In this document: in pieces, positions 1 to 18,900 of the stretch
Numbering within the stretch: position 1 is the first letter of the stretch
Layout: each line of letters starts with the position of its first letter
Origin: Python bivittatus
Lineage: Eukaryota
Length of the DNA stretch: 18,900 bases
Direction: 5' to 3'
NCBI RefSeq assembly: GCF_000186305.1
Contig: NW_006532411.1
Span: 170,404-189,303, forward strand
Translations under genes and position numbers: made by a program
The notes under the pieces: model-generated
What the model saw: only the letters and a program-made list of their open reading frames with translations
Database searches by the model: none
What the model was told of the DNA's origin: nothing

Positions 1-65
1 GCTGGCTGGGGAATTCTGGGAGTTGAAGTCCACACATCTTAAAGTTGCTGAGATTGAGAAACACT
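1..65 (-). mobile_element. Fold-back SINE-like module, minus orientation, single arm; may be truncated by the window edge
   Basis: gctggctggggaattctgggagttgaagtccacacatcttaaagttgctgagattgagaaacact is the reverse complement of the module that recurs through the window. Confidence 0.7.
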
Positions 66-495
66 AACCTAAAGTACTCTTTCTCCTCCAACGCTCTCAC
101 CACATTCCCACCTGGGAGTCTTTCTCTGTTGGGATTACCATATCTGGGCTGCAAAACTCCAGCCAAGTTAGACTGACTTTTCTGTAGTTGCATGGATTTT
201 TGCGTAGAAATTGGACTTCACTACAATGTCTCAAGAAAAGTTTACTTAACACTGAAAATGTGGAGCATCTCGCTGGTCACAGCTCTCACATATCCCAATC
301 TGCGGTCATGGATAAATATCAAGGAAGGGAAACAGTATTTTTAACACTTGGTTTTGAAGGGCAGTATAACAGAGTTTAAAATTAAATCGAGGTCTACACA
401 TAAGGGGAGTCACCAAATCACAGGAGGTTGAGGAGTAAATGGCAGAAGAGCTGGTGGGAGAATAGTCATGGAGGGGAAGGTAAAGTTAAGCTCAC

Positions 496-631
496 CTTAT
501 GGAAATCATCAAAGGTGACAGCAGCCACAGCTCCCCGAATGCGTGAGGCCAATGTCTTACAGGCATCACCTATAAAATCTGGGACACAGAATAGGCGGGT
601 TGCTTCAGCCACTGAAGGAATCTCAAAGTGC
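496..631 (-). CDS. MVP: MVP coding exon, 11th in window; continues into an intron towards coordinate 1. Encodes (W)[45 protein letters not shown]
   Basis: Minus-strand ORF 466..681 contains this peptide, colinear with human MVP ...[52 protein letters not shown]. Acceptor ttttcccatcag|G at 632-633 and donor AAG|gtgagc at 494-495 (phase 1 in, phase 0 out). Confidence 0.85.
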
Positions 632-1424
632 CTGATGGGAAAACAGATCCATACACAGTTGCCAAGAAAACCTGAAAACATGACAGTGATTTTAAGTCAA
701 ACCTTCAGAGCTCTGCCTACCTCGTATCTTGGAAGCATTATCTTCCAAGTGTAGTGGGTCACAAACATCTTGCAGCCTCTTAAACTTGGATTAAGGAAAC
801 CATACTTTGCTTAACAGTTAGCATGACATGAACCAGACCATTATGACTTTACAAACCACAATTAAAATCAAACATAACTTAGTGTGATGTATCCGTCCAG
901 ACGATATTTAAATATTCTCAAAGCAGAGGTTTAAATAGCTGATTAAGAAAATCAGAATGGAGAATTAAGGCAATTAAATATATTTGATAAAGCAGCCATA
1001 TCATATGGCATACTGAGGATTAGATCATGTTTAATAATGAAAGGAACTTTAAGATCTAGTTGAAATATATTAGGGATAATTAAAATAGCTAGATGGCCTC
1101 TTATGACTTTCAGTTGAAAATTAAGCTTCTGACTCAAGTGTGTATTTTTAAAGTCACCGAAGGTTTGTAACTATTGTACAGATATTGCTAGGTGGGAACA
1201 ACAGATTTTATATCCCTTGGTAGAACTGTTTGAAGACTAAGTCACGTTACAAGTTTTTTTTTCTTTTAATATACATACTTAGCATTTTCTTCTGTTTCAA
1301 GGTAAGGAATATTATGCAAAGTGCAAAAATAGTGCAACGAATAGTGAGCACAACACAGATAGAAGGAAACCTAAATAAAATTAGTACTGTTGTTACTGTT
1401 TGTTGACTATTAGTTTGCTGACTT

Positions 1425-1888
1425 ATATATTTATTTATGGAATGTATTAGCTGCCCCAATCTGTTATGACTCTGGGCAACTTACAAAATACAATGATAAA
1501 AATACTACAGAAACACACAAAACCATCAAAAAATCTGGAAAAAACCCAATAATTATTAAAAGACCATAACACCATACAAAGGGTCCATCCCTTCATTTTA
1601 ACCAAGGCCTGGGCCCAGAGCCAGGTCTTAAGGATTTGTTTAAATAGGACCAGGGTGGGGCCATGCAAATTTTGGGAGGATGGTGCTCCAGAGGGGAGGT
1701 GCCATGTCAGAGAAGGACCACTTCCCGAGTCCCATCAAGTGACATTGTTCAAATCAGTATTTTTCAAACTTGGCAATTTTAAGATGTATGGACTTCAACT
1801 CCCAGAATTCCCCAGCCAGCATGCTGGCTGAGGAATCCTGGGAGGTGAAGTCCACACATCTTAAAGTTGCCAAGTTTGAAAAACACTG
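1425..1888 (+). mobile_element. Composite SINE-like element of about 460 bp: body 1425-1754, core module 1755-1820, then an inverted copy of the core 1824-1888 forming a near-perfect palindrome
   Basis: The body shares blocks with 4865-5223 (tttatttatGGAATgt..tgactctggg..ttacaaaa..aat..aaaa / agccaggtctt). The core cagtatttttcaaacttggcaattttaagatgtatggacttcaactcccagaattccccagccagc is followed by atg and then its reverse complement. Confidence 0.7.
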
Positions 1889-2469
1889 GTTTAAATTGAT
1901 GGAACCCAGAGCACACCAACTCAGTCAGACTGTGTGGGACAGGAAGAACCTACAGGGAACAAGCAGTTCTCAGACAACCAGGTCCTCTTTCAAAGAAGCA
2001 GTCAAGAGAACCAAGACAAACCTACTTATAGATTAGGCAATATTGCTAAACAAGGGAAAAAGAAAAGAAATACGCTGTTTGAAAGTAAAGCGCTGTAAAG
2101 CCAACTTGCCTTCACAGAAGGCAGCTGGAGTTAAGAGTTCAGAGCAAAACGGAAGGTGAAATGAAAGATAACCTTTTATTGCAGTTTCTCTCAATCAAAG
2201 GCAAAGACAGTTGGGATTGGAATTTTTAAAAAGGGCCTTTTTTTAAGGTATATTTTAATCCATTTGTGAATATGACAAGATTTCTCCCAATCTAGAACTC
2301 CTCAAAATTTGCTGTGCTATACATCTGGCTGTGCATCCAGTGCATCTGGATGGCCCTGAAGACGGTGGCTCCAGCTCCCAGCCTTTCAAATACGATTTGG
2401 ATCCCCAGCTTTTTCCCATCCCAATGATGAATCTCTTGGCTTTCAACCCATCAGTTTTCCTTCACTCAC

Positions 2470-2667
2470 CAGTTATAGGCCAGTTGGAGCTGCAGACGAG
2501 CATGATCAGCTGTTTCAATAGTGATGATGTCAGTGCAGAAGTCTGGCCCCAGGAGGAGGCACAGAGAACGACGCATGTGGGGGCGCTTGGGTCGGCCCCC
2601 TGAGAGACTCAGGACCGTGAATTGCTCATCTGGACCCAGAAGCACAAGTTCTGGTCCAAAAACCACC
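2470..2667 (-). CDS. MVP: MVP coding exon: (R)[65 protein letters not shown](W)
   Basis: Minus ORF 2466..2666 matches human [66 protein letters not shown]. Acceptor ctccttcccccag|G at 2668-2669. Donor AACTG|gtgagt with gt at 2468-2469; the split codon TG+G restores Trp. Confidence 0.88.
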
Positions 2668-3335
2668 CTGGGGGAAGGAGAAGAAGATCAAATTAAATCA
2701 TGGAGGTTCCAAAGAGCACTGGATATAACGTGGCATGAACCAGTGGCACCCTTCTTGAAGGCCGAGATTCTTTTGCAATGCTTATTTTCATGTTTTATGT
2801 CTCATTTATTAAAGGACTCATTCTCTGTGAATATCAAGTTTCCTTCTCACCAGTAGATTAAATTGGATTGTTTCTGATTCATGGGGACTATTCTCAGGAA
2901 TCCGTTCTCATTTTAGTTAATATTTATATTAACTTCATAGCAGCATTAATTCTTTTAGAGAAGGATAGTGCTAATTTAGTATAATGTAGGGGGAAAAGGG
3001 AGAGATCAGAGGCCTACTAATTAAAACATATCCACTTCTCAGCCACACTGAACAGGAAGAAACACAAAAGGGTGGACTTGTGAAGAGAAAATATTTCATT
3101 AAAGATATGGCAGTCCTTTATTAAGCCTTTTCAAAGGACTGCCATTCCTTTAATTTTGCCTATTAAAGTTACAAAGCTGGTGGGACAAATGGTATCTTAT
3201 TGAAAAATACTGCCAATAATCAAGTCTGAGGGAAACCCCCGCCCCCAAAGGACTTGCAGTGAAATGTAGTAATGCGGCTATTAATACTGAGTGAAATTAA
3301 CTGGGTGATCTAGGCTAGTCCATCACAAAATAAAA

Positions 3336-3336
<1 letters not shown>

Positions 3337-3367
<31 letters not shown>
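3337..3367. repeat. (TG)n microsatellite of about 15 units, intronic
   Basis: Seen directly: tgtgtgtgtg... Confidence 0.95.
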
Positions 3368-3369
<2 letters not shown>

Positions 3370-3819
3370 GCAGGCCAGAGGGGACAAAAGATGGAAAATA
3401 AATGAAAAATACAGTATCAGCAAATGAGAGAGCAGCAATTCTAAAAGTCAACCAAACAACCTACTTTCCCTGAAGTCTCATTTCTGGAACGGGCATGCAT
3501 ATTGCTTATTCCAGAGGGAATTCAAAGTCCCCTCCCTGGACTCCACTTCAAAGACAAAGAATGACCAGATTACCAAATCTGGGGCTGCAAAATTGCAGGC
3601 AAGAAACTGGATCAGCTTCTCAACAGCAATCAAACCTATTTGTCATGAGGCTTTGAAACGTGCAAAGACCATTTCCTGAGCCAACTGTGAGTGTCAGCAG
3701 TCTTCCAACAAGTTTGGGCAGCAGAGTAGAGTCATCAAGAAGGGACCAAGAAAGCTGATCCTGAAGAATGTGCCATCCTCAAGAGTCTGGCACAGAAGGG
3801 AGTAGACCAATTTTCTCAC

Positions 3820-4058
3820 CTGGATTTACGCTCCTTGTAGTCGTAAACTTGTACAGCTGCATTGTGGGGGACACGATAAGACACAGCGCGTGTCTTATCA
3901 CGGGGCAACCCAATACCCTTTTCAGAGCTATCTTTGGAACGATCAAGAAGAGGATCCCTGTCTGTGGTCAACAAATCCTCCACGTGGGGAGGCAGGTGTT
4001 TCTCCCACAGTTCCTCATCCTGAGACAGCATGTAAGAATGGCCAATGACAGCTCTAAT
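3820..4058 (-). CDS. MVP: MVP coding exon: [79 protein letters not shown](R)
   Basis: Minus ORF 3816..4085 matches human [82 protein letters not shown]. Acceptor cattctcttccag|ATT at 4059-4060. Donor TCCAG|gtgaga with gt at 3818-3819 (phase 2). Confidence 0.88.
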
Positions 4059-4536
4059 CTGGAAGAGAATGAGAAATGGTTGCAAATATATGAATATGTA
4101 GCATCACCCCAAATTTAGTAGAATTTCCTGGGCAATCTTCTTTATTTCAGGAGCATTGCAAAAAACATTACAAAAAGGAAGTCTCTTTATAGTTCTGAAA
4201 GAATAAGATTGTCTCTGTTAGCACTGACTCTATCAAGGTGATATAGAAACCATAAAGCAGTAGCTTTTCTTCAATTAACAAGTGAGATTACAAATGAGAT
4301 TTTGCATAGCGCTTAAGATAATGCTACCCAGCACTGCCTTTCCCCATTGTCAAGACTCTTTTACAATGCTTATTTTCAAGTAATTATGCGGAAGATTCGT
4401 TTCTAATCTTATGTGGAAGATTCCTCTTTGCAGGCGCTGGACCCTTATTACTTGCATTTCAAGCCTAATGGAGATTAATGCTGAATTATTTTTTCTGCAA
4501 ATCAGAAGTAGGCAGAGGCATTATTTGCTTTCTGGC

Positions 4537-4575
4537 TTTTTTTTTTTTTTTTAAGGAGGAGAAGGAGAAGATAAG
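4537..4575. repeat. T16 homopolymer followed by a GGAGAA-type purine repeat
   Basis: ttttttttttttttttaaggaggagaaggagaagataag. Confidence 0.9.
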
Positions 4576-4864
4576 TGCTATTACATTATTTTGAAAAAGT
4601 AACTAGAGCCCACCCATCCTTTGCCCGTATAGGGATACGCAGAAACAAATTTACAATCTTTCAAATGTGCTGAAATAGAAACCATGATGGCATTTATTAA
4701 TGACACATCAGCCTTTTAACACCTCAATAGCTCATACATTTTTCAGGCTTTTGTGTGTGCATTTTTGGGAGTTTTGGGGGGATAAGGGGCACAACACTAC
4801 TCTTTATACCTCAATCCTATCCCTAAAATGGGTCCTGGCCCCATGTAGGCCCCAACCTTTTTTT

Positions 4865-5306
4865 TTAATTTTTATTTATCGAATTTGTCACCACCCATCT
4901 CGCTAAATGACTCTGGGAGGTTTACAAAACAATTAAAATCAATTAAAATTACAAAATTACAATAATAAATAAAAAATAAAAAGATCCAAAATAATTGGCA
5001 ATCGCTCAGGGAGCATCATCGAGGCGCTAACCACCCCCAGGAGTGGGTAGAGTTGTTATACCCCCACGCAAGCTGGCAGAGCCAGGTCTTCCATTTTTAT
5101 TGGAAGGCCAGTAGGACAGGGGCCTGCCGCACCTCTGGGGGGAGAATGAACATGCTGCGCAGACTCTGGTGCTACTCACAAACTGACCAAATTTGTGAAC
5201 TCCAATTCCTCCTCCTCTATAACCAGTGTTTCTCAACTATGCTGGCTGGAGAATTCTGGGAGTTGAAGTCCATACATCTTAAAGCTGCTGAGGTTGAGGA
5301 CCACTG
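4865..5306 (+). mobile_element. Second composite SINE-like element: body 4865-5223, then a truncated direct arm (cagtgtttctcaac, 5224-5237) joined to a full inverted arm (5242-5306)
   Basis: Body homology to 1425-1754. 3' module ctggctggagaattctgggagttgaagtccatacatcttaaagctgctgaggttgaggaccactg. Confidence 0.65.
4905..4985. repeat. A-rich low-complexity tract, the 5' part of the composite SINE
   Basis: aattaaaatcaattaaaattacaaaattacaataataaataaaaaataaaaag. Confidence 0.8.
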
Positions 5307-6087
5307 CCATAAACAGAATAAAAAGTGAATGTATGAAAGAACTAATGAGTAGAAGTAACTCATATTCATCTAAGCTACAGAACTCTTAGGACCCTACCCT
5401 GTCTACAATATGCCACAAATGCCAGATGGTGGAGAAGGAAATGAAGATTATGGAGTACAGAGCAACATCCCCAAGGAACTCAAAGAGAAGTCATATGCCA
5501 AGAACTACCTTGATAATTTTAATGTCATCTATCTAAGCTAGTATTCTAAGTTGCTAACAGCAGCCAATGGGTTACTGCTACCAAAAGTGAGAACCACAAA
5601 AGCAATCTCCCTCCTTTCCATTATTCTTTATTTTACAAATTTGGTAGCTAGCCTGCCCTTTAAAACGTAGAAGTCTACTAGATCTTACATGACAAGCTAA
5701 GGTCACTGAAGTTCTCCTACTGACTTCGTATTTATACTATCCTATACCCATCTCCGTCCTTGCGATACTGGCCAATGCCCAGAGGAAGACGATGCTGGGG
5801 GACGGGACCAAATCCTTGCAAATTGGTTTATTTTGGAAAAGGACTGAAAAAAATAACCAAAGTTGAAGTAGAAAGATATCCTTTTCACCACCACTGTGAT
5901 TTCCTTTTGCAAGCCCACTTTAAGAGCTTTGTCTGAAGAGCAGTTAATAAATAATGAGCCACATTAGAGAACTGCAGTCCTTTTGCTAACATTGACCTCT
6001 AAAAGTCTGCATCCCCAAGGACTGACGTGTTTTAGGCCACATCGTAGAAGCTTCTCCAGTAACCACTGCTGTATCTATTTCACTCAC

Positions 6088-6246
6088 CTTTCCCGTCTTA
6101 ATATCCCGGACATAAATGCCTTCATTTTCAGCCAGAGGAATAGCATGCCGTTGCTCCATCACTTCTACCTCCGCAGGTGGTACGTACTCCAGAGGGCCTC
6201 GAATCAGCCAGCGGTCACCTGGCTTGCGCAGAATGTCCTTGTTGTC
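6088..6246 (-). CDS. MVP: MVP coding exon: [53 protein letters not shown]
   Basis: Manual minus-strand translation matches human [44 protein letters not shown]. Acceptor is a long polypyrimidine tract then cctag|GAC (ag at 6247-6248). Donor AAG|gtgagtg with gt at 6086-6087. 159 nt, phase 0 at both ends. Confidence 0.85.
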
Positions 6247-6345
6247 CTAGGTATGAGGCAAAGTAAGGAGAAGAGACGAAGTGGCGTATCCAGCTACATC
6301 GATCCACCCATCCACCCTGGCCAACAGAGACTCTGGATCTCCTAC

Positions 6346-6471
6346 CTCACTTTTGTCTTCCAAGGGACGAAGTGCACGTAATAAGAGACCATCTTCTTCA
6401 GACAAGACATAAATGTCCTGGATCCCATCTTCCAACCATTCTCCAGGCTGTAGGAAGAATGATATCTCGCC
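6346..6471 (-). CDS. MVP: MVP coding exon: [42 protein letters not shown]
   Basis: Minus ORF 6247..6507 matches human [39 protein letters not shown]. Acceptor ccttctgcag|GGC (ag at 6472-6473). Donor GAG|gtagga with gt at 6344-6345, a weak match to consensus. Reading on through the ORF loses homology and hits an in-frame TAG at 6249-6247. Confidence 0.8.
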
Positions 6472-6702
6472 CTGCAGAAGGAGGAACAAGAGTTGGGGAA
6501 AACTCAAGAATGATCTTTAGCCATTGGCTTAAAAAAAGGGGGAGCTTAACTTTACTTATTAAACTGTACTGTAATGTGGTCAGTTTGATTTTGGCTTACT
6601 ACAGGAGTGGTATCCTCTGGTTCCAAGCTATTCTAATCACTATCACCAAAAATCATTGGTAAGTTGCCTGCCGTTATGAGCCTGGAAACAGAAACTGTAG
6701 TG

Positions 6703-6817
6703 CAGTGTTTCTCAACCTCAGCAACTTGAAGAGGTGTGGACTTCAACTCCCAGTGGGAGGGGAATTCTGGGAGATGAAGTCCACGCATCTTCAAGTTGCT
6801 GAGGTTGAGAAACACTG
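6703..6817. mobile_element. Fold-back module present as a complete hairpin: direct arm 6703-6753, inverted arm 6763-6817
   Basis: cagtgtttctcaacctcagcaacttgaagaggtgtggacttcaactcccag .. ggaattctgggagatgaagtccacgcatcttcaagttgctgaggttgagaaacactg. The arms are almost exactly complementary. Confidence 0.75.
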
Positions 6818-8174
6818 CTGTAGGGTAAACGCATGTAGACACATACTAATGGGAAAGTTAAGATCTGCCCTAGCCTAGATCCTACAGTCTAGAAAAGGTG
6901 AAGTATAACATCTCCTTCACTAGTCTGACTTTTAGTGACTGTCCCTGTAGCTTTCTTGGCAGCAATACACAACTAGTTTGTCACTGCCTTTTTCTGGGAA
7001 ATTGTTTTGATATCCAAGTCTAGCATACAACTCTGAGATTCCCTAGTAGGACTCCCAGAATTATAATTCAACCCTGTTTAGCTTCTGAGCACAGGCAAGG
7101 TTGGGCAGATGTTGCCACCTAGTATAATACACTCATTAATCAGGACATAGGTGAACAACTGATATTGTCTAAGGGCAGCAGTGTATTATTTTTCTAAACT
7201 GAAGCTTGCCTGTGCAAATGGCTAGGGGGAGCACTACTGGATGCAAAAATGGGACCAGTGTTATAAAATATATAGGATCTTATATATAGGATCTTAAAGT
7301 CCCACCAAACAAATCAGGAACACAACTGATCATTTTTAACTACTTCGTTAGAGCGTATTCAAAATACAGACTCATTCACATGCACATACTATATCTACTC
7401 AAAAAGAAGTAGAGAGAAAGAGATAGAGATGTAAGGGAGTTGGGAGTGCTTCATGGGGAAATCTTAGCATTTAAAAACTATGTCTCCATTGTCTATTCTC
7501 AACTCCTGTCATCTCCCCCTCTAGGCTACTTTGGGTAGACTGAACAGAGGGATGCACGCAGAAAGCACAGAATAAAAAGATGTAAGAATGCATATAGGTA
7601 AAGCTATTATATAAAGAATACAAGCCTATATTTCGTATCAGTTATACTAAGTGATAATTACAATTTATGTGCTAGAACACAGATGGGCAGATTTGAAAAG
7701 TTGGGGAAGAATAACTCAGATGCCTGTTCTTCTGGAAGGCTGCAGAACACTGACCAGTGACATGGTGACCTAATCAGAAAAAGTGTAGTCATTTCTTTTC
7801 AGCCCATGTTTAACACCTTGGAGACAGTTTAAAAGAGAGAAAAGGAACAGGAGGCAAATCACTACTCTCCCATCCTTCAAATTCGCCACGCCATGCCACA
7901 TCAACCCACGCCAAGCCAAAATCCCATTACTGAAATTTTACTGCAACATGGCTGAATTTCAGGGCTGCATGTGGGCCAAAAGTTGCCAGCCAATTTAAAG
8001 CATCCCTAACAAAAAATACAGAAACACACAGTTTGATGCTTTTGGCCAAGAAGGACCATCAATCCACCTCTCAAGGCATTTGCTGCACGCTGTCAGAACT
8101 GTGACTCCTGGCAAGTTAATCTTAATGTTTAGCCCAAATCTGCTTCTCTGCGATCTCTTTCCTGCTGTTTAGAG

Positions 8175-8240
8175 CAGTGTTTCTCAACCTTAGCAACTTT
8201 AAGCTATGTGGACTTCAACTCCCAGAATTCCTCAGCCAGC
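8175..8240 (+). mobile_element. Fold-back module, direct arm only
   Basis: cagtgtttctcaaccttagcaactttaagctatgtggacttcaactcccagaattcctcagccagc. Confidence 0.75.
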
Positions 8241-8435
8241 CATGCTATATAGGATCTAAAAAAATTATTCTACAAGGCTACCTTTCTAATCTGCCCCCCA
8301 ATTGGAGACACAGTCAAGCTGCTCTTCAAGGACAGGCTGCTTTAAGGAGTTCTGTTGTAATCACTAGGGTTGACACACTGAACAGTAACAGTATATCAAT
8401 GGAGTCCTTCACACTACTGAGATAAAGATACATAC

Positions 8436-8675
8436 CTTCATGACCTTCTTCTGCCCAAGTTGAGGTTTACCATCTATTAAACCTACTGGGTCACAAATCA
8501 CACAGTACTGACAACTATTCAAAGTGGTGATGTTGATAATGCCCAGGACTTCCTCGTAAACATCAGGGATGTGGGCTTCAGTGTCTGCCATGGTGACCAA
8601 CCATTCTTCTCCAGTTTTCCTCAGGATACTTTGAAAGTCCTGAAATGTTTTAGTGGCCCGGAGATGCAGGGCTTT
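8436..8675 (-). CDS. MVP: MVP coding exon: [80 protein letters not shown]
   Basis: Minus ORF 8409..8681 matches human [79 protein letters not shown]. Acceptor ttttgttctttgaag|AAA (ag at 8676-8677). Donor AAG|gtatgt with gt at 8434-8435. 240 nt, phase 0 at both ends. Confidence 0.88.
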
Positions 8676-9094
8676 CTTCAAAGAACAAAAGAGGCAGAAA
8701 TATATTAGTGCAAAGGACCCTTTTTATGATTTAACAGTTTTTGTTACTGAACTGACTATTCATACAAGTGACATGTATAGGGTTCAAGCCACACCCCAAA
8801 ATGTTCATTCTGATTATATCCCCTTACACTTCGAAGCAGACTAGAATGCGTGGCAGTAGCAAATTTTAGGCAGAGATGGTTAACATGCAGCCCTTCATAA
8901 GATATTGGTCTACAAATTCTCATCCCTGATCACTGGTGGTATGGGACTAACAGAAATTTAAATCTATCAGCATCTGGCAACAAGCACTGGTTTTTAATAC
9001 AGCCCTCTTCTGCTTGCTCGCTCAAGGAAAAGAGATCTACCAAAGCAGGGAGAGGCCATGGGCATCCATAAAAGAGAGCCAATTTGGTGTAGTA

Positions 9095-9160
9095 CAGTGC
9101 TTTTCAACCTTGGCAACTTTAAGATGTGTGGACTTCAACTCCCAGAATTCCCCAGCCACC
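9095..9160 (+). mobile_element. Fold-back module, direct arm only
   Basis: cagtgcttttcaaccttggcaactttaagatgtgtggacttcaactcccagaattccccagccacc. Confidence 0.75.
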
Positions 9161-9186
9161 ATGTGTATATAAAGGTAGGATAAAAA

Positions 9187-9205
9187 TCTAATAATAATAA
9201 TAATA
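9187..9205. repeat. (AAT)5 microsatellite
   Basis: taataataataataata. Confidence 0.85.
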
Positions 9206-10192
9206 CAAGGTCTTGGGAGGATGTTATCTCCATGTAACCAGAGGTTAATGGCTTTTAAATTTTTATTAAGATATTGAAGGAAAATTGGGGGGTTAAGCTA
9301 AAAGCCCCTAACCCAAACACACTTTCCCAGGGAAACTAAAACTGTCAGCTCAGCCCTAAAACATTCAGAAGGCCAAGGAATGCTGGTAATTTAGAAAAGG
9401 ATTACTGGAAGGCCAGCACAGCTCTGGGAAAGCAAAAGAAAATAACTCCTTAGGAAGAAATTGTGTTCATGAAATACCGCCTCTTTGTTCTTTCAAAACC
9501 CCATTGTGTTTGTAGTCCTGCACCATTGCCCCATAGTTCCGCCAACTGCCTCATTGCTTTCCCTAAACACATAATGTGTTTTATCTGATCAAATACTTGC
9601 TGTTGTCTATACTCAACCAAATACCCTGATGCTGTATCCAATCATACATATTTTCTAAGCCTATAAAATGGGACGAAACCCCCACCCCTCTTTAGGCCTG
9701 TCTTTGCCTCCAGCACCATCAATAAATCTACTTGTGGTTCAATGCAATGTGTCCTGGTCTCCGGTTCAAACAAACTCCTAGGGAATTTCTCCTACAACAT
9801 AAGGCCCCCGAAGTCACTGAGAGAATGTTGTTACTCAGCAGGTATTAGAACCTGGGGCTTCTTTTCCTTGTCTAACCACTCTAGGTTACTATCTTTTATA
9901 GCAGCTCACACAAGCTATAAGGTTGGGCCAGTAAAAATGCTTCCATATATCTATTCAATCCAATTAGCTATAAAAAGGAGCTTTTTTTTGTATTTGTTAG
10001 CCAAGGAACATTCATAAGATGCCTATACATTGGACATCCTACCATAGGTGGAGGAGCTTCAGAATCAAAGGAGAGTTTGCCCTGTGCTTTGCAGCAAAGA
10101 CTTCAAGCACCAAAGCAATGGCAAGTGACATCAATAGCCTCTCTTTCCCATAACCATCACCTACTGCTAGAAGTTGCAAACCTGTCACTTAC

Positions 10193-10287
10193 TTTCTCAG
10201 TCAGAATGATAGCATCAACAATGTCAATGACTTCCTCAAATACACCCGGCAAGTAAGCCCCAACCTTCTTCACCAGCCATTCTTCAC
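10193..10287 (-). CDS. MVP: MVP coding exon: (G)[31 protein letters not shown]
   Basis: Manual minus translation matches human [32 protein letters not shown]. Acceptor tttttccccacag|GT (ag at 10288-10289). Donor AAA|gtaagtgac with gt at 10191-10192. The reading frame is restored with the neighbouring exons. Confidence 0.85.
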
Positions 10288-10349
10288 CTGTGGGGAAAAA
10301 ATGGGAAACTCAAGATATACATAAATACATACATAGATATGTACATACC

Positions 10350-10386
10350 GTGTGTGTGTGGGGGTGTGTGTGGGGGTGTGTGTTTG
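10350..10386. repeat. GT/G-rich imperfect tandem repeat (gtgtgtgtggg)x3 inside the 149-bp MVP intron 10288-10436
   Basis: cgtgtgtgtgtgggggtgtgtgtgggggtgtgtgtttg. On the sense strand it is a CA/C-rich tract. Confidence 0.9.
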
Positions 10387-10436
10387 TAGGAAAGCTGCCC
10401 TCTCATAGGATCATGGGCAGGAACCCAAAAAGATAC

Positions 10437-10568
10437 CTGTCACACGTTTGTTTCCTTCTCTGTCCCTGCATTCCTTCCGTGCCTGAAGTCTTATGGCTTG
10501 GTTGGGACGAATGGTGGTGGCCAGGATAGTCTCCACAACTTCAACCTCTTTTTGTGGGATGTAGGTGC
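10437..10568 (-). CDS. MVP: MVP coding exon: (G)[43 protein letters not shown](G)
   Basis: Minus ORF 10411..10668 matches human [45 protein letters not shown]. Acceptor ctttccag|GC (ag at 10569-10570). Donor ACAG|gtatct with gt at 10435-10436. Confidence 0.88.
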
Positions 10569-11311
10569 CTGGAAAGGACAATGGTTTATTACACGAGCTA
10601 GCTAGGCCCCAACCCATATATGATAGGGGCGGGGAAAGAGTGGTCTGCTTCTGACTTGGCCAAGTCAAGACAATGCCTAGGAAGAAAGGAGATGGAAGCT
10701 ATTGTTCCTGGTTCCATGCATAGAAGGGAGGTCCTTGTAAAATATGGTAAGGTATTTAGGGGAAAAAATCAAATGGATCCTATTTTCATTTTAACCAGTA
10801 CAATTATTTACTTAAAACATATTCCTAAGAGCTTTATCAATGTTTTAATTTTTACCATTAGCATTTCCTGAGCCAATAATTTCAATGGAGATAAAAAATA
10901 GAGAAAAAAATTACATTCATATGGGATGCCATGAGAAAAAAGGGGAGAGTTTAAAGGAATATTTTGGCCCTAGGAGTCCTGAAAAACAATTGGGTCTGAC
11001 TCATTTTTGCCTACTTGACTGGCAACAGATTAGTGGAATCTCAGGATTCCTCACATTTCCTAATATCTGTTTGTTTCAACTGAGGATATCAGGAGCGAAG
11101 CCATAATCTTCTACATAGATCTGCATGTGCCCTCCAGGAATGTGGAACCTATGGCCCTCCACATTTGGCTGAAGTAGTGCACTCAGGCTTTCTCACCATT
11201 GGGTCTGCTGGTTGGGGCCATTGGGAACTGTACTTCAGCCACATCTGGAGGACCACACATCTCCCCTCTCTGCTGAAAGCAAAGTTTCCTTCCTTGACAA
11301 TTGTCACTTAC

Positions 11312-11435
11312 CAGGTCCTTCAAACAACCATTCATCTCCAGCAACATATTTGCCCCCCTGGTCATCCTCAAAGTCCAACAGGGCTTTCAGATGGAGGGCG
11401 GTGTTAGCCAAGACAATTTGTAAAGGTGTAACATC
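11312..11435 (-). CDS. MVP: MVP coding exon: [41 protein letters not shown](G)
   Basis: Manual minus translation matches human [42 protein letters not shown]. Acceptor tctag|GAT (ag at 11436-11437). Donor CCTG|gtaagtgac with gt at 11310-11311 (phase 1). Confidence 0.85.
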
Positions 11436-11945
11436 CTAGAGAAACAGATGAACAAAGGGGCTATGGTAACAAAAGCAATGCCAGGGACTATTCTGTAGTG
11501 TCAAGTCTTGCGAGGCTGGCAAACTCAGGAAACAGGAACCATTTGGATTTCTGGAAAGATCTTTATTAGTAGTAAAGTAAATTGAATACATCCAAAAAAT
11601 TGAATAAAATTGAATTGAATAAACAAATATAGAATCTTGAAAACTTACCAAAGTAATTCTCCAGCACAACTTATACCTAGTATAATTAAGGTGAGATTAC
11701 CCTGAGTCTCTTTCTCATACTTCCCTCCTCCCCTGAACTCAAGAATCACTTCTGAAATGTCTCTGTCTCCTCCCTTACCTGTCATTTTACCTCCTCTGTG
11801 TTCTCACGTTCCCTTAGGCATTCCATCACATGTAGAAAATTACAGCATGGGATTCATACATTCTCCCACCCTTGCTACAAGAGGTCTCCAACTGATTACT
11901 CATTGTGGGCCATTTGAGGAGAAGAGAAATTAATACACCTCCTAC

Positions 11946-12141
11946 CTGTTTTAGTTCCTCTCCTGGATATAAAGGGAAAGGGTCCTGAGCCATTCTGATC
12001 TCCAAGTCAGCATGCGCAAGCCGGACCTGCCCCAAAGCATCAAGTTGGACTGCCCCATCTGTTCCATGAACCACTGGATTGAGGATGATACAGTAATGTC
12101 GTGGCGAAACCATCACCATCTTCTTTGGGGCTAATATGATC
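11946..12141 (-). CDS. MVP: MVP coding exon: (R)[65 protein letters not shown]
   Basis: Minus ORF 11826..12305 matches human [66 protein letters not shown]. Acceptor ctacttcag|G (ag at 12142-12143) completes the AG|G Arg codon from the previous exon. Donor CAG|gtagga with gt at 11944-11945. Confidence 0.88.
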
Positions 12142-13240
12142 CTGAAGTAGGAAAGAAGTGTGGTGATGGTGGTGGAAATGCAAAAGGAGAAATAAGATCT
12201 TGGGCTTCTAGGCTCCTGGTTAGAGATGACCTTCAGCGTGACTTCCTCAAGTTCAGGCATGCTTCTTATTTGACCTAAGTTTTGCAAAACATTGCAGAGT
12301 GACACTCTTGAGAGATGTTTGCTAAGTTCAGGCTAGGACTTGGAGTGGGCTACTTTTGGGGGGCAGTTAATGCTTTTGGAGGGGCATGGTGGATGCAGCC
12401 ATGCAATGTGCATGAGGCAGAGAAGGATCTATTCCAATTTTCTGGGAAGACATGGTGATTCTTCTTAATTCCTTTATCTACTTGAAGCCTGCTTTAGATT
12501 TATACTTCACTATTTGTCTGTTTCTCATCTCAAAACAGTGGGAAACCAAAATTCAACTCTGTCATTAGAGGAGACTTCAGAACTTGCAAAAATAGCTTTC
12601 AAAGGTTCAGAAAGTCCTGAAGCTGCTCTTTGCTCATCCTGGGCAAAGGTTACAGGTGTTATTCAAACCGCCAATGTGACTGTACAGAAAGTGCCACAAG
12701 GGTGGCAGAAAACCAGAAGAAAGTCAAGGGATCCAATCAAAGCACAAAGGTGAGCATTTGAGGGAGGAGAAAAGAGAAAGGTAAAGAAACACTCCCTCAA
12801 AGCAGCCACGCAAGCGATCCCCATCCAAAACTTAGCTTGGGGCTCACCCAAGGAAGCACCTCCTGTTACTGGTTCAAAGGCCTCGTAACAAATACTGTAC
12901 TCAGAGTATGCAAAGAGCAGAGTTTCTTCACCCCAGCCCTGAAGAAAGCAGGGAAGACGTGGGCCCCTGCTTCCTCCTCCTGCAGGTTAACGCCTGGGCT
13001 CAGCAGGAAGACTGAGCGGCCGCTCCCGTGGGGGAAGCTTGGGAGAAAAGCAAAAGGAGCTGGTTCTCCTTATGCAAACAGAAAATGTCTTTCTATTTTG
13101 TTGCAAAACTCTGGGCCAATCGGAGCGGTCTTCCAGGCCCCAGCCAGGCGACCATTCCGCCAGGGAAGCGAGAGACGCGAAACTTCGCCCGGCGGTTACC
13201 GTGTTTTCCTGGTTACGGTCCTCTTTCTGACGTGACTCAC

Positions 13241-13362
13241 CTCTCATTATCCTGGCGGATGTAGGTCTTGGGCCCCGTTTCCACGCGGGTGACGTTGGAG
13301 TTCTGATCCAAGACATGGATGTAGTGGTAGGGAGGGATCCGGATAATTGACTCATTCGCCAT
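13241..13362 (-). CDS. MVP: MVP first coding exon with initiator [43 protein letters not shown](R)
   Basis: Minus-strand ATG at 13362-13360 in a good Kozak context (gacaacATGG). The translation is nearly identical to the human MVP N-terminus [42 protein letters not shown]. Donor GAGAG|gtgagtcac with gt at 13239-13240 (phase 2). Confidence 0.88.
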
Positions 13363-13366
13363 GTTG

Positions 13367-13583
13367 TCTGCCAAGCAGCGGTGCAAAGGAAGAGCAATCG
13401 TATTTTAGAAAAATGCCAGAAAATATCACGGCAGGGCTGCCCGCTGAGTCATCCCCCTCTTTGCTTTACCCAGGGAGGCTTTTAGAGAAGCCTGCAATCT
13501 CTCTCACATCCGCCAGCCCGTCAGGGCGCTTAATCCTTCAAGAACGCAGCTTGGCTTTTAACTCAGCAACCCACACCCTTACG
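13367..13583 (-). other. MVP: Hypothetical small intron (13372..13582) separating a non-coding exon 1 from the ATG-containing exon
   Basis: On the minus strand: cgcttcacc|gtaagggtg (donor gt at 13581-13582) and a pyrimidine-rich run then ttggcag|ACAACATGG (acceptor ag at 13368-13369) just upstream of the start codon. Sequence-only inference. Confidence 0.25.
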
Positions 13584-14889
13584 GTGAAGCGACACACCCG
13601 CTCCGTAAAATCATGTTCCCCTGGCAATTGCGGAGAAGCCTAGCTCGGCGTGCAACGACCGTCGCCGAATCTGGCTGTCAAGATTTGCTTTGCTGGGTGA
13701 AAAAGAAACCCACACAAACATTCGAGGTTTTGCACGTGCTGGCCGAGAGAGATCCACACTAACACCCTCGTTCCTCAAAGGCTGAGCCTTGGTGGGAAAG
13801 TCGATTTCACTCACTCATTTAGAATTAACGATTGTACGTGTCAGCGCATAATGCTGCACTTTGGGAAACTTCTTAGCTCAAAGATGGATCGGTTAAAAAA
13901 AAAAGTATTGCAAAGGAAAGTTTTTATAGTGACAGAGGGAAGGGGGGCTATCAAATGCATGGCCCACGCCGACGTGGAACAGTGCATACTGGGGAGACAA
14001 GGGTAAAGCCGATGAGCTAAACTTACCAGGCGGAGTTGCTTTCTGGAGCTTCGGTGACAGTAGACTGGGACTTTCTCTAATACATTTATTTCCTGGTTTA
14101 GAGGAGGAGCAAACTGAAGCGGGTCAGAAAAATGTTAAAGGAGAAGCAGATTTCAGATGTAGTAGTCATTCAGAGTTTTGCAGCCAAATATAATAGCCCT
14201 GCCAAAGTACTGTAGGCTATATAGGTTCAAGGAGGGTTCTCATAGGATCGGGAGAATGCTTGAGAACACAAGAGACTTCTCCACAAGCTTGGTGAGGGGC
14301 AATAAGATGCTTTCCCCCCTACACTTTTTGGGAGATTTCACAAGTATCAGATAGAATGGAGTGAAAATAACATGGCCATCTAACTCATGACTCTGCTGAG
14401 TTACGCATAGCAGGCTGAACCAGGAAAATCGATCATAAAGAATGGGGATTGGGAAGATCCTTTACAGTAATGTATGATGGAGAAAGCAAAGGAGAGCATT
14501 GCTCTGGGGACCTTTCCTGAGCAGGAGGAAGGAAATTATTTATGGGATTATTCAGAATAATTGACAGACTGTCTACAGCCAAGCTAAAAATTGGGATAAT
14601 AAGTCTGGTAGCGCCCTTTCCAACTAGCAAAGTATAAGCTTTTGTGAGCTGCAACTCGCTTCCTAAGGTGCATAGAGTGGCTAGACTAATACAGAATTTA
14701 AATTGGGATAAGGTGGGGGGAAAGGGAGAGGAAGACAGGTTGGTTATGCAGGTTACATGAGAGAGAGATTAAAGGACCCTATTAATTAACTATTTTAATG
14801 GGTTAAAAACCCATTGTCTCATAAGAGACCTTCTGAGATTGCCTGAAACCAGTTTCTCACTCAATGATGCTGTCAAACTCCTCCTTTTC

Positions 14890-15065
14890 CAAAACAGGCA
14901 CTTTGAGGTCTGCTGCGGAGTGTCCTGGCAGATAGAAACACTTTGATCCTACCCTGACAGAGTTAGTGGCACTAAGTCACCCAGTGAGCCTCCATGGTTG
15001 AGGGTGGACTTGAATCTGGGGTTCTTCAGTCAGTCCAACCCCTCAGCCATTACAACACACAGGCT
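14890..15065 (-). mobile_element. tRNA-derived, MIR-like SINE copy in minus orientation
   Basis: Minus strand reads ..ggttggactgactgaagaaccccagattcaagtccaccctcaacc.. (tRNA-like T-arm) followed by ctcactgggtgacttagtgccactaactctgtcagggtagga, a MIR-like core similar to 'tgaccttgggcaagtcact'. Confidence 0.45.
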
Positions 15066-15131
15066 CTATTTTTAAAAGTTGTTAGAAACTGCTAGCTGAC
15101 CAGGAAACAGACTTCTGCATTACATATAGAT

Positions 15132-15232
15132 CAGTGTTTCTCAACCTTGGCAACTTTGGTGGACATGCTGGCTGGGGAATTCTGGGAGGTGAAGTCCACA
15201 CATCTTAAAGTTGCCATAGTTGAAAAACATTG
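15132..15232. mobile_element. Fold-back module: truncated direct arm 15132-15167 joined to a full inverted arm 15168-15232
   Basis: cagtgtttctcaaccttggcaactttggtggacatg|ctggctggggaattctgggaggtgaagtccacacatcttaaagttgccatagttgaaaaacattg. Confidence 0.7.
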
Positions 15233-16013
15233 GTTTAATTCAATCTATGGCTAGATTTCTATGATATAGTGAGCCATAATGTGGTGGTGCTTTGGTTTAG
15301 CATATGCCATGACCCCCCCCACTGTGGTCTGTAGACCACAATGATTTGTACACCATCCAACATCGCCAGCCAGCACAGCCGAGAGTAAGGGATCCTGGGA
15401 ATTGAGTTCCGCAACAGCTGAAAGATTGCACATCACACACCTGTGCTGTATGGCTTTGGGCTAGATGATTCCAAGCAATTACTCTAGTTAATTCAGTAAA
15501 TTATAGTTAAGTAAACCAAGGCTTGGCATGATGTATGAATCCAGCCTATGTCTCAGGAATAGAATATATCCTCTGCACACTTAGAAACTCCAGTTTCAAT
15601 AATTAGCTTAGTTGATTGAAAGGTGTCATTTAATACAGTTGAGAGAAAAAAAGTTGAAACTTCAGAAAGTGATAGCAAATATCCAGAATATTCTGGATAT
15701 AAGTGGGCCTGAAGCTTGTGAAAGCTGTGTTAAAATTCTGCCTGGTTATGGATTCTGAAAGGTATCCAAATCCTGCTCAAAACAAACATGTTGTTAACAA
15801 GCTTCCCTTCCTTGGGCATGTCAAAACTCCATTTTAGCTGCTGTATGAAAAAAGAAAATGAGACAGCTGATCCTTTTTTCCATCATCAGTTTCCATGCAG
15901 GAAGAATTTGGCCCAGCTGTTATAAACATATCAGGAAAACAGTTAACTACTCTACTGCCAAGGTAGACCAGATCAGGAAACTGACTCTACAGGAAGACTA
16001 GAACTCTACTTTA

Positions 16014-16325
16014 TTGATATAGGCTACAGCAGTGTTTCTCAACCTTGGCAACTTTAAGATGTGTGGGCTTCAACTCCCAGAATTCCCCAGCCAGCCTAGC
16101 TCAACACAGCTTTCACAAGCTTCAGGCCCACTTATATCCAGAATATTCTGGATATAAGTGGGCCTGAAGCTTGTGAAAGCTGTGTATTGATATAGGCTAC
16201 AGCAGTGTTTCTCAACCTTGGCAACTTTAAGATGTGTGGGCTTCAACTCCCAGAATTCCCCAGCCAGCCTAGCTCTGGGAGTTGAAGTCTACACATCCTA
16301 AAGTTGCCAAGGTTGAGAAGCTCTG
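16014..16325. repeat. Complex rearranged block: 89-bp direct repeat DR1 (16014-16102, includes a module direct arm); perfect 82-bp palindrome (16104-16185); DR2 (16187-16275); module inverted arm (16276-16325)
   Basis: ttgatataggctacagcagtgtttctcaacc...ccagccagcctagctc occurs twice. Between the two copies lies acacagctttcacaagcttcaggcccacttatatccagaatattctggatataagtgggcctgaagcttgtgaaagctgtgt, which is exactly self-complementary. Confidence 0.8.
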
Positions 16326-16522
16326 GGCTACAGTAACAGAATCTTATACATCTGCCTCTGTTTTCCCTTCCTTCCTCTTATACCCAGGAATCTGAGGGGA
16401 GCCAGTCTGAGATTCCTTCTCATACTTTCCCACTTCCCCCCTTAATGCACACTTCTTTTGCACCTGTTGTCTTAACAACTTCTGGATGGCTTCTCCAAGG
16501 TCATCTCCATGGCTCCCTATGC

Positions 16523-16612
16523 CAGTGTTTCTCAACCTTGGCAACTGCTGGCTGGTGAATTCTGGGAGTTGAAGTCTACACATCTTAAAGTTGCTGAGGT
16601 TGAAAAACACTG
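16523..16612. mobile_element. Fold-back module: truncated direct arm 16523-16546 joined to a full inverted arm 16547-16612
   Basis: cagtgtttctcaaccttggcaact|gctggctggtgaattctgggagttgaagtctacacatcttaaagttgctgaggttgaaaaacactg. Confidence 0.7.
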
Positions 16613-16694: not shown

Positions 16695-17045
16695 TGGTAT
16701 TGTCCTAGAATCATAGTGTTGGAAAAGACCTAAGAAGTCATCAAGCCCAACCCCCTGCACACTGCAGGATTTGCTACAACATACCCAATAGATGACCATC
16801 CAGCCTCCATCTGAAAACCTCCAGCAAAGAGGAAGAAACCAAGTAACCTATTCCACTGATTGACAGCTCTCACTGTCAAGAAGTTCTTCCTCATATCTAA
16901 TCCGTATCTCTACACCCTTGAAGTTTCATCCCATTAGTTGTAGTCTTACCCTCTGGAGCAAGTGAGAATAAGTCCAAGTGCTCTACAATGTGACAGCCCT
17001 TCAGATATTTGAAGACACCTATCATATCCCCCCCCTCTCTCTTTT
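16695..17045 (+). mobile_element. Interspersed repeat copy (SINE/CR1-associated type, family not named)
   Basis: Starts agaatcatagtgttggaaaagacc..caagcccaaccccctgcac..gatgaccatccagcctccatctgaaaacctccag..ctattccactgattgacagctctcactgtcaagaagttcttcctcat. I recognise this pattern as a recurrent reptile repeat. Recognition is from memory only, with no database check. Confidence 0.4.
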
Positions 17046-17117: not shown

Positions 17118-17480
17118 GGTAGTCCTTGACCTATGACCACAATTGGGACTGAAACATCCATTGCTAAGTGATGTGGTCATTAAGTGAGTCGTGCCCAATT
17201 TTATGACCTTTTTGCTGCAGTCATTAAGCAAATCTGGCTTTACCCATTGATTTTGCTTATCAGAAACCCACTGGGAAGGTTGCAAATGGCGATCACATGA
17301 CCCTAGGACTCTGCAACCATTGTAAATGCATGCCAGCTGCCAAGCACGCAAATTTTGATCATGTGACTGCAGGGATGCTGCGATAGTTGTAAGTGTGAGG
17401 GGCGGTTGTAGTTAACTTTTTTCACTGCCGTTGTAACTTTGAATGGTCATTAAACGAATGGCTGTAAGTTGAGGACTACC
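17118..17480. mobile_element. Non-autonomous MITE-like element of about 363 bp with imperfect terminal inverted repeats
   Basis: Left end ggtagtccttgacctatgacc, right end ggctgtaagttgaggactacc; reverse-complemented they match at 15 of 21 positions. No coding capacity inside. It resembles a very common squamate repeat family that I recall but cannot name confidently. Confidence 0.55.
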
Positions 17481-18900
17481 TGTATAGCAGATCACCAAAC
17501 ACAGTCATACAGTATCTGGGCTGCAAAAATTCAGACAAATATGAAAGGATAGGAAAAGTTTGTTTTCTGAATCTCAGTACCGACTTCTGTAGAGACTTCT
17601 GCTAAAGAGCAAAATACAGTATTTGAAACCTACAATGGAAAATGAACAATTAAAGCAGAAATAGCTATATGGTCGATGTGATTAGCTCACAGCAAACTCT
17701 ACCAACAGTAAAACAGAATTTGGCCACAAACAGGCCTAAGGATCAGCTAATACAGCTGTACATAAAATAGTTCTGAATGGTCTGAAAACTTAGTTAAAAA
17801 GGGAGTAAAATGAACAGTAGAGCAAAAACGTGAGCCTTATTTTGAATCGCCCCTTTGCCATAAAGGCAGAGCCTTCATATATACAGTGTAAGAGGTTTTT
17901 CTGAATTTCCCTTGAAGAACAGCCATTGTGAGCACACTACAATGTGCTATGGTTAATGCTCTTCCAAATTTCAAGGTGGTTATATGATTTAAGTATCTTG
18001 CTGGTATTCCTAACTAACTACCTGGTAGGGACAGCTATTCAAACATATCTCTAGGGACAGCCACATGTCAATCTCTTTGCTGCCATCTACTGACTCTCAA
18101 GACCTTTGCAGTTCCATCATGGCATGCCAACCAAAGTTGTATCATCTCCCATTCCAACATTTTAAGCCATATACCCACTGCAAAGTGGCTCAGCTGTTCT
18201 GTTTTGCAGCCTAAGGAATCATGGGATCACATGGGATTGAGGGTCCAAAACATCATCCCTAAAACATCACGCCTAGGAATTTTGGGTGGATGTGTGTGGA
18301 TGTGTGTAGGGGAGAACAATAGTACTTAAAGGACTGTATATTTGCTAAGCCTATAATAGGTCAACTGAAAAACATAATTAAAATTTTCTGTACCCCTCTG
18401 GTATCATCTGTAGGTTGTTTGGATTATTATACATAAAAACCCCAAATAAAGTTGTGGACTGCAACCCATTACATTTTATGGATCAAGTGCTGTCCCAAGT
18501 TATTTGTTGGACAGGTGAATGACTTTGAATATAGGGTAAGCCTACTTTGGAAATAATTTGAAAGAAGTGATTCAGACTTCCCGTGACCTGAGCACCTCTC
18601 TGCTGTTCATTAAAGCTGTGTGCTTTTCCAGACTTTGTTGGCTGCTGCTTTAAGGAATCCACCTCTTAAAGTTAAAAATGACTTTTAAAACACCTTTTGC
18701 TTATTTGAAGTGTGAAGATCTTTTTTCAAACCATGTTCTATTTTAATTCATGATGCGAGAAGATCATAAACTGCTGAGAGAGATTGCTCAGTATTAATGA
18801 CACAGTATTCAAAAGCTGTTCTTGGGGATAACACAGATACATGGAATGCATGCCAAGTCAGTTAATAGGATTAGATTATAAATGTTTGTTATCTGAGGAG

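Follow-up and report, generated by a model that had tools for sequence, protein, structure and literature searches.

The lizard Anolis carolinensis carries 2 families of hAT superfamily elements that are closest to the repeat studied here, hAT-N1_AC with a length of 135 bp and 57-bp terminal repeats starting with CAGTGGTTCTCAACCT and the hAT-Charlie element SPIN_NA1_AC with the terminal repeat CAGTGKTTCTCAACCT, both listed with the target NYYTARRN (Table 1 of Novick et al. 2010, PMC3014272). SPIN elements invaded tetrapods 15 to 46 million years (My) ago and the split of pythons and colubrids dates to ca. 100 My ago; the python was described as having barely detectable hAT elements and no SPIN (Castoe et al. 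2011, PMC3157835). Elsewhere, hAT-Charlie elements have been counted among the dominant transposons of snakes (PMC8303610). Here, we analyze a stretch of 18,900 nucleotides of the Python bivittatus genome (NCBI RefSeq assembly GCF_000186305.1, contig NW_006532411.1, positions 170,404 to 189,303 of the forward strand; hereafter “the window”) in which a palindromic repeat is scattered across introns and upstream DNA of the gene MVP. A preliminary description of this DNA had taken the repeat for a fold-back family resembling short interspersed elements (SINEs). We find instead that its copies are very probably non-autonomous miniature inverted-repeat transposable elements (MITEs) of the hAT superfamily with Charlie/SPIN-type ends that drift neutrally and, once inserted, lose DNA from their centre outward.

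Judged by its sequence, the window is the Python MVP locus: MVP lies on the minus strand with its start codon at 13362 and coding exons down to 481 (six-frame translation and tblastn), and most of its exons in the window are 100% identical to Python bivittatus MVP. We compared this locus to the MVP loci of 3 other snakes, i.e., the olive python Liasis olivaceus (L002; ca. 96% DNA identity to the window), the boid Candoia aspera (X1, L003; ca. 84%), and the colubrid Erythrolamprus reginae (L001; ca. 72%), as well as to those of Varanus (L004) and Sceloporus (L005).

The intact unit of the repeat is a non-coding, near-perfect palindrome of 132 to 139 bp with 2 arms of ca. 66 nt each and the ends CAGTG...CACTG. 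Its arms follow the consensus CAGTGTTTCTCAACCTTGGCAACTTTAAGATGTGTGGACTTCAACTCCCAGAATTCCCCAGCCAGCA and the reverse complement thereof, running from the terminal 16 nt CAGTGTTTCTCAACCT inward to a CAGCATGCTG centre, where CAGCA of one arm meets TGCTG of the other, and the opposite terminus reads AGGTTGAGAAACACTG. Both arms align over their full length and are 81% to 89% complementary within one copy, confirming the earlier proposal that they are related. Since complete copies are palindromes, the opposite orientations previously assigned to different copies have little meaning for them. A search of the window with the 65-nt module allowing 3 mismatches gave 3 matches compared to 0 expected in 200 shuffles, a repeat finder returned direct families of 5 to 8 copies plus 49 inverted pairs, and an arm-profile search detected 13 full or near-full arms and 2 short stubs. 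The module was recovered at every position given before, and only minor corrections were needed, such as 16203 instead of 16201 as the start of the third palindrome. Altogether, the window contains 9 insertion sites of one repeat and one local duplicate. This is one site per ca. 2 kb (9 per 18.9 kb), and the 3 other snakes have 8 to 12 sites per 42 to 59 kb. Mapping of the exons placed 6 sites in MVP introns, as the preliminary description had it, and the 3 sites above position 15000 lie 1.8 to 3.2 kb upstream of the start codon.

The insertions are flanked by direct duplications of constant length. At 10 independent insertion loci, which comprise 12 element copies because 2 loci are represented by 2 orthologues each, the 8 bp on either side match at 8/8 or 7/8 positions, and 2 additional loci match at 6/8; random pairs of 8-mers at the same spacing match at 7/8 or better with P = 0.0015. 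Besides the 3 palindromes of the window, perfect 8/8 duplications are found at 6 insertion loci among orthologues and other copies in the other snakes. All well-preserved targets (10/10) have TA at positions 4 and 5 of the 8-mer (nnnTAnnn), with a merely partial Y/R bias around it. Of the complete copies in the window, the 134-bp palindrome at 1755 to 1888 (in the intron between the exons at 2669 to 2469 and 630 to 481; arms 89% complementary) has GTTCAAAT at 1747 to 1754 and GTTTAAAT at 1889 to 1896, and its Candoia orthologue has a perfect 8/8 duplication, GTTTAAAT. The palindrome at 6703 to 6817, in an intron ca. 230 nt from exon 6471 and with a deletion of ca. 17 to 19 bp across its centre, is flanked by CTGTAGTG (6695 to 6702) and CTGTAGGG (6818 to 6825), again with an 8/8 duplication in Candoia. 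The third, at 16203 to 16325, has a deletion of ca. 11 to 16 bp next to the centre in its right arm and a perfect duplication, GGCTACAG, at 16195 to 16202 and 16326 to 16333; Liasis has a 123-bp element of identical form (L002 7003 to 7125). The repeat at 1 to 65, previously reported as an inverted arm only, is the right arm of a complete palindrome that is cut by the start of the window, with ACCTAAAG as one copy of the duplication at 66 to 73. Its orthologue in Liasis is a complete palindrome (L002 23671 to 23804) between flanks matching at 7/8 (CTTTAGGT/CTTTAGAT), and the site is also filled in Candoia and Erythrolamprus (L001 40978 to 41113).

Three pairs of filled and empty orthologous sites reveal what is inserted: the whole palindrome and one extra 8-mer arrive together, and the empty allele has the 8-mer only once. 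The palindrome is thus a single unit and not a product of nested insertions, which had been considered as an alternative. In the first pair, a 139-bp MITE of Liasis (L002 6274 to 6412) with CTCTACAC on each side corresponds to an empty target, CTCTACAC, at 16908 to 16915 of the window; because the outgroup Erythrolamprus is empty there as well, this insertion occurred in the Liasis lineage. In the second, Candoia is filled by a 185-bp MITE with a non-palindromic core of 43 to 51 bp (L003 11223 to 11407, ATTTAGAG on each side), and Python (12899 to 12906, ACTCAGAG, in MVP intron 1) and Liasis are empty. The third pair is the site at 16523 to 16612, which is filled in Python and Liasis and empty in Erythrolamprus. 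Together with terminal inverted repeats of the CAG(T/G)G type (CAGTGTTTCTCAACCT and AGGTTGAGAAACACTG), the 8-bp duplications at nnnTAnnn targets (NYYTARRN) and the short, non-coding, dispersed copies match what is expected of hAT MITEs. A hAT transposase supplied in trans would bind the terminal repeats and transfer the element by a cut-and-paste mechanism, thereby duplicating the 8-bp nnnTAnnn target.

The termini also connect the snake family to its described relatives. The 16-nt repeat of SPIN_NA1_AC, CAGTGKTTCTCAACCT, fits CAGTGTTTCTCAACCT exactly, and both elements make 8-bp NYYTARRN duplications. Like the snake MITE, hAT-N1_AC is short, non-autonomous, and composed almost entirely of terminal inverted repeats, and its terminus CAGTGGTTCTCAACCT matches at 15 of the first 16 nt, a likeness that is judged on terminus and architecture only. 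After position 16 the 2 sequences part (CTGTGG against CTTGGC), and the Anolis family is young (ca. 2% to 5% divergence) whereas the snake family spans the time from before the python–colubroid split to after the Python–Liasis split. At the MVP loci of Varanus and Sceloporus, we found only weaker, more diverged relatives with longer non-palindromic cores (profile E-values of 1e-2 to 1e-5). One of them, at ca. 31067 to 31190 of the Varanus locus, ends with CAGCTTTTTCCAACC, which fits the repeat of Anolis hAT-N2_AC (CAGSYTTYTYMAMCM), and contains the inner motif GGACT(A/G)CAACTCCCAG, as do the snake arms; the snake MITE family may have its origin in this older lineage of squamates. Reviews of snake repeats do not describe the snake family by name, though given the reported dominance of hAT-Charlie elements in snakes it may well have been catalogued already. 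Searches of 8 million papers with sequence strings of the module returned only chance matches to unrelated primers, and metagenome scans with 2 patterns as well as a scan of viral contigs for further copies or a viral vector gave 0 matches.

Orthology gives the insertions relative dates. Python shares the copies at 1 to 65, 5224, 6703, and 15132 with the colubrid Erythrolamprus as orthologues. The insertion at 8175 to 8240 is specific to the python lineage, since Candoia and Erythrolamprus share ancestral sequence without a MITE at this place. By these alignments, some insertions predate the python–colubroid split and one insertion in Liasis postdates the split from Python (3% neutral divergence), so the family has been active for a long time. 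We considered SPIN proper and rejected it: although its ends are alike (the comparison concerns the termini only), SPIN is 15 to 46 My old and reported absent from the python (PMC3157835), and copies that are orthologous between Python and Erythrolamprus are too old for it.

The truncated and single-arm copies of the window show how these elements decay. They have the forms given in the preliminary description, i.e., a plus arm truncated at different points joined to a full minus arm at 5224 to 5306, 15132 to 15232, and 16523 to 16612, and single arms at 8175 to 8240 and 9095 to 9161, both on the plus strand and in MVP introns. Orthologues that are intact in one snake and shortened in another show, as to pattern, that such forms arose from complete palindromes by deletions anchored at the centre. 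At 9095 to 9161, a solo left arm in the window, Candoia has a complete palindrome (L003 15249 to 15382) with the duplication GTGTAGTG/GTGCAGTG, followed by the body of a SINE. Both pythons (Python and Liasis) lack ca. 230 bp from ...CCACCATG on, starting exactly at the centre of the palindrome, and this deletion eliminated the right arm along with the duplication and the greater part of the host SINE, which is of the tRNA type. The SINE is whole in Candoia (L003 ca. 15020 to 15248), where the MITE had inserted into its head. The other solo left arm, at 8175 to 8240, reaches up to the palindrome centre and stands in place of ca. 60 bp of ancestral sequence kept in Candoia and Erythrolamprus, which is compatible with an insertion that would then have lost everything from the centre onward, including the right arm and part of the flank. 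A longer element shared by both solo arms was sought by comparing the sequences from 8241 and from 9162 on, where similarity ends ca. 10 bp past the arm; we rejected this idea, as the orthologues show both to be deletion products.

Other sites lost DNA at the same place in one or another lineage. At the site of 1 to 65, complete in Liasis, Candoia lacks 27 nt adjoining the centre; at 1755 to 1888, Candoia lacks 14 nt adjoining the centre; and at 6703 to 6817, Erythrolamprus retains neither the inner left arm nor the right arm and is missing part of the flank as well. The copy at 15132 to 15232, upstream of the MVP start codon, has deletions of consensus positions 27 to 32 and 39 to 65 in its left arm and a full right arm. 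The pythons lost the inner left arm at this site, whereas in Candoia and Erythrolamprus the left arm is still full and most of the right one is gone, so that the ancestor must have been complete. The copy at 16523 to 16612, flanked by decayed duplications (CCCTATGC and TCCCACAC), lacks consensus positions 24 to 67, which leaves a 24-nt left stub and a full right arm. In alignments with the consensus, each of the 8 independent internal deletions of at least 14 bp either covers the centre or stops no more than 3 nt from it; for this, random placement of deletions with the same lengths gives a joint probability of 7e-4. By inspection, the junctions show 0 to 1 nt of microhomology. The most likely explanation is that palindromic copies would form hairpins or cruciforms, break at the tip, and be rejoined by end-joining, thus losing DNA from the centre outward. 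Of the earlier proposal that hairpin-mediated deletion had acted on an originally palindromic element, the deletion pattern stands, with complete and truncated orthologues side by side, and the mechanism itself is what we infer. Similar asymmetric deletions that start at the centre of symmetry and stabilize the palindrome have reportedly been seen by Akgun et al. in 1997 and Cunningham et al. in 2003 as centre-break “palindrome revision” of transgenic palindromes in mice. Those palindromes were kilobase-sized and the events observed directly, whereas the snake arms have 66 nt and the events are reconstructed over tens of millions of years.

The strongest competitor, though an unlikely one, is that truncated forms are mobilized deletion derivatives that were inserted already truncated and need only ca. 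14 to 24 terminal nt on one side. It draws on the copy at 5224 to 5306 in an MVP intron, where consensus positions 15 to 65 are missing and a 14-nt left stub (CAGTGTTTCTCAAC, 5224 to 5237) adjoins a full right arm (5240 to 5306). This form, in which CTCAAC is followed by (T/C)ATGCTGG, is unchanged across all 4 snakes and hence ancient; its Candoia orthologue kept the duplication at 7/8 (CTATAAAC/CTGTAAAC), and a complete ancestor was not seen. This particular copy could equally well have been inserted already truncated. Furthermore, consensus positions 39 to 65 are missing at 2 unrelated loci, as a deleted subfamily predicts, but both copies lacking them have orthologues with a full arm. At 4 other loci, another lineage has a complete orthologue, and the junction differs in every truncated copy of the window, all of which favors loss after insertion.

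Interval 39 to 65 was deleted independently in 2 lineages (window 15158 to 15166 and L003 28799 to 28801), each time joining GGA to C(A/G)TGCTGG, for which a hot spot is one possible reason and conversion from a subfamily with this deletion another. At the centre of the copy at 6703 to 6817, the 16 nt from 6745 to 6760 have 11 differences between Python and Liasis, compared to ca. 3% in other MITE DNA, and both pythons differ from Candoia there. This looks like complex multi-nucleotide events at a hairpin loop of the quasi-palindrome or template-switch kind.

Substitutions that define subfamilies are mirrored on both arms, with 6 to 7 such cases per young Liasis copy versus 0.3 to 0.4 expected for independent arms and 2 to 4 in most other copies. 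Both arms thus stay identical in the lineage that transposes, and we infer that copying between arms, or regeneration of the palindrome from one arm, maintains palindromy in the master lineage. Two complete copies of Erythrolamprus with inverted flanks (L001 5398 to 5530 and 10651 to 10793; see below) could point the same way, as a lost arm was perhaps re-synthesized by fold-back copying; in the former, the palindrome extends ca. 13 nt into the flank. Based on these mirrored substitutions and on both copies with palindromes running into their flanks, a more far-reaching but doubtful idea is that of a long-lived, perfectly palindromic snake hAT MITE lineage whose master arms are kept identical by hairpin-templated correction or fold-back re-synthesis, whose fixed copies form a dated series of centre-break revisions, and whose interval 39 to 65 is a hot spot of structure-specific cleavage. 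If this were true, early surveys would have underestimated hAT activity in pythons.

Several observations weigh against a neutrally drifting hAT MITE that decays from its centre. An autonomous element or transposase was identified neither in the window nor at the other loci fetched, so the superfamily call rests on duplication length, target, and termini. A convincing direct duplication is lacking at 15132 (flanks ATATAGAT/GTTTAATT, matching at only 4/8), at 16523, and at 2 or 3 copies of Erythrolamprus. Among the latter, the 2 complete copies at L001 5398 to 5530 and 10651 to 10793 have inverted rather than direct 8-bp flanks (inverted match 7/8 and 6/8; direct match 2/8 and 3/8, respectively). 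The density of one site per ca. 2 kb fits poorly with hAT elements being barely detectable in the python (PMC3157835), unless the family sat among the unclassified repeats of that survey. Breakage of hairpins is read from breakpoint positions only, and abortive gap repair after excision could be another source of central deletions. Finally, the sample comprises ca. 25 insertion sites at one locus in 4 snake species.

As RNA, complete copies are predicted to fold into very stable hairpins of −85 to −106 kcal/mol (z-scores of −14 to −18). The copy at 1755 to 1888 reaches −106.4 kcal/mol (z −18.3), that at 6703 to 6817 −85.8 kcal/mol (z −17.7), and that at 16203 to 16325 −85.5 kcal/mol, whereas truncated copies fold far more weakly (−20 to −42 kcal/mol). 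It is plausible from these models that complete intronic copies form long double-stranded hairpins in the MVP pre-mRNA. One may thus suspect that the repeats are RNA genes or regulators used by the host and kept by selection, i.e., microRNA-like precursors, ADAR substrates, or splicing modulators, particularly as one pre-mRNA contains 6 copies and the best copy matches the Rfam family mir-5408 (57.5 bits, E-value of ca. 1e-10 to 1e-8) with real similarity in the inner arms. We consider this improbable to a high degree. The family threshold of 90 bits is not reached, unrelated models of perfect-hairpin microRNAs score almost as high, arms are freely lost across lineages, presence or absence of copies varies between species, and the substitution rate equals the background. 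Specifically, Python and Liasis differ by 4.1% of substitutions in MITE DNA (2.9% without the one 16-nt cluster at the centre of 6703 to 6817) compared to 3.05% in other non-coding DNA and 2.3% in exons. The MITE copies evolve at the neutral rate with no sign of selection, and selection on the hairpins was rejected on the grounds that divergence equals background and arms are freely lost.

The mir-5408 (RF04264) match covers 1781 to 1862 of the window, misses the gathering score of 90, and is the only one among the copies of the window. The consensus of this model and the inner arms have uGgaCuacaaCuCCCa ... GaauuCuGGGaGuugaAGucC in common. We take mir-5408 to be a miRBase family of Anolis carolinensis; a literature search for it gave nothing usable, and Rfam at its threshold found no mir-5408 in the Sceloporus and Varanus loci, where U1 was the only match. 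The remaining sub-threshold microRNA matches are mostly generic matches to perfect hairpins. These results suggest that a related lizard MITE has been annotated as a microRNA precursor, which does not make the snake copies microRNA genes. A parallel is human MADE1, a mariner-derived, near-perfect palindromic MITE of 80 bp with hairpin transcripts that is the source of the miR-548 family. MADE1 resembles the snake MITE in being palindromic and hairpin-forming and demonstrates that such elements can seed microRNA genes, yet it is shorter and belongs to another superfamily with TA duplications. By placing perfect RNA duplexes of 60 bp into pre-mRNAs, the complete snake copies are reasonable candidates for processing by ADAR or Dicer.

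Two remaining explanations are hardly tenable. The copies could be SINE-like retroposons with a fold-back body that are transcribed by RNA polymerase III and inserted by the enzyme of a long interspersed element (LINE), given that they are numerous and short and that the inner arm motif GTGGACTTCAACTCCCAG by eye loosely resembles the B box of a tRNA, but this motif is mirrored in both arms, ARAGORN found no tRNA-like head, Rfam gave no match in the window at the gathering threshold, there is no A-rich, simple-repeat, or LINE-like 3′ tail, both ends are one and the same inverted sequence, and the duplications are constantly 8 bp at nnnTAnnn. Terminal inverted repeats and duplications of fixed length with neither tRNA head nor tail thus exclude a SINE and indicate a hAT MITE, for which the label “SINE-like” has to be given up and a hairpin shape, deemed unusual before, is what one expects of a class II element. 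No better is the chance of a MITE from another superfamily (Tc1/mariner with TA, PIF/Harbinger with TWA, or piggyBac with TTAA targets) whose 8-bp matches are mere target preference: TA is present in every target, but it sits at positions 4 and 5 of the 8-mer and does not adjoin the ends of the element, the full 8-mer is found once in empty and twice in filled sites, and the termini fit published hAT repeats.

For annotation, it follows that this repeat calls for masking as a hAT MITE rather than for reporting as a new class of SINE, and that the intronic hairpins need no functional explanation. The family is dense at this locus even though hAT elements had earlier been called barely detectable in this genome. 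Its orthologous copies across ca. 100 My of snake evolution show the germ-line decay of short perfect palindromes in a vertebrate, which proceeds from the centre outward and often takes flanking DNA along. The element is ordinary in kind, and its pattern of decay is informative yet expected.

At the copy of 16203 to 16325, the window also contains a local rearrangement (16012 to 16185, plus strand) consisting of a 91-bp exact duplicate followed by a perfect palindrome of 83 bp. The block at 16012 to 16102 is 100% identical to that at 16185 to 16275 and contains flanking DNA together with the left arm and the centre of the MITE. An additional arm at 16030 to 16096, missing from the preliminary description, belongs to this duplication and is not an independent insertion. 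The 83-bp palindrome between both copies is built from 15679 to 15731 and its reverse complement, giving the overall order B-rcA-A-B, whose junctions coincide with the centre of the MITE and with a palindrome of 22 bp, ATATCCAGAATATTCTGGATAT. Liasis has a single copy of B (L002 7053 to 7143) and no insert. Either replication recently switched templates between 2 hairpin-prone sites or the arrangement is an artefact of assembly.

The arms carry the inner motif GGACTTCAACTCCCAGAATTCC (e.g., at 1787 to 1812 and 8207 to 8232), and lizard relatives have GGACTACAACTCCCAG instead. It resembles what we take to be the “ACTACA + SBS” binding motif of ZNF143/Staf, ACTACAAYTCCCAGCAATGC, and the sites are putative; a string search of the literature for a ZNF143-type motif gave no match. 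If the likeness is real, the MITE family would spread such sites in pairs.

Other repeats are interspersed with the MITEs. The left flank of the arm at 9095 (9077 to 9094, AGCCAATTTGGTGTAGTA) represents what remains of the head of a squamate SINE of the tRNA type (GGTGTAGTGGTTAAGGTGCTGG...CAGGGTTGTTGTTG...). Dinucleotide microsatellites of the (CA/TG)n type are found in MVP introns at 3330 to 3360 and 10330 to 10385 and are visible as HTHTHT in the six-frame translation. Another dispersed repeat at 17225 to 17484 has 70% to 76% identity to sequences at several non-orthologous positions of the loci from Liasis and Erythrolamprus. At the place orthologous to ca. 8240 of the window, Erythrolamprus has an element of ca. 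250 bp (L001 ca. 23800 to 24030) that is absent from Python and Candoia and whose ends, TATACACTGCTCAAAAAATAAA...GGGAACACT, by eye are typical of a Tc1-like MITE. In Sceloporus, a full-length match to the U1 small nuclear RNA (L005 11720 to 11872; 87.5 bits, above the Rfam threshold) lies in or adjoins the first MVP intron.

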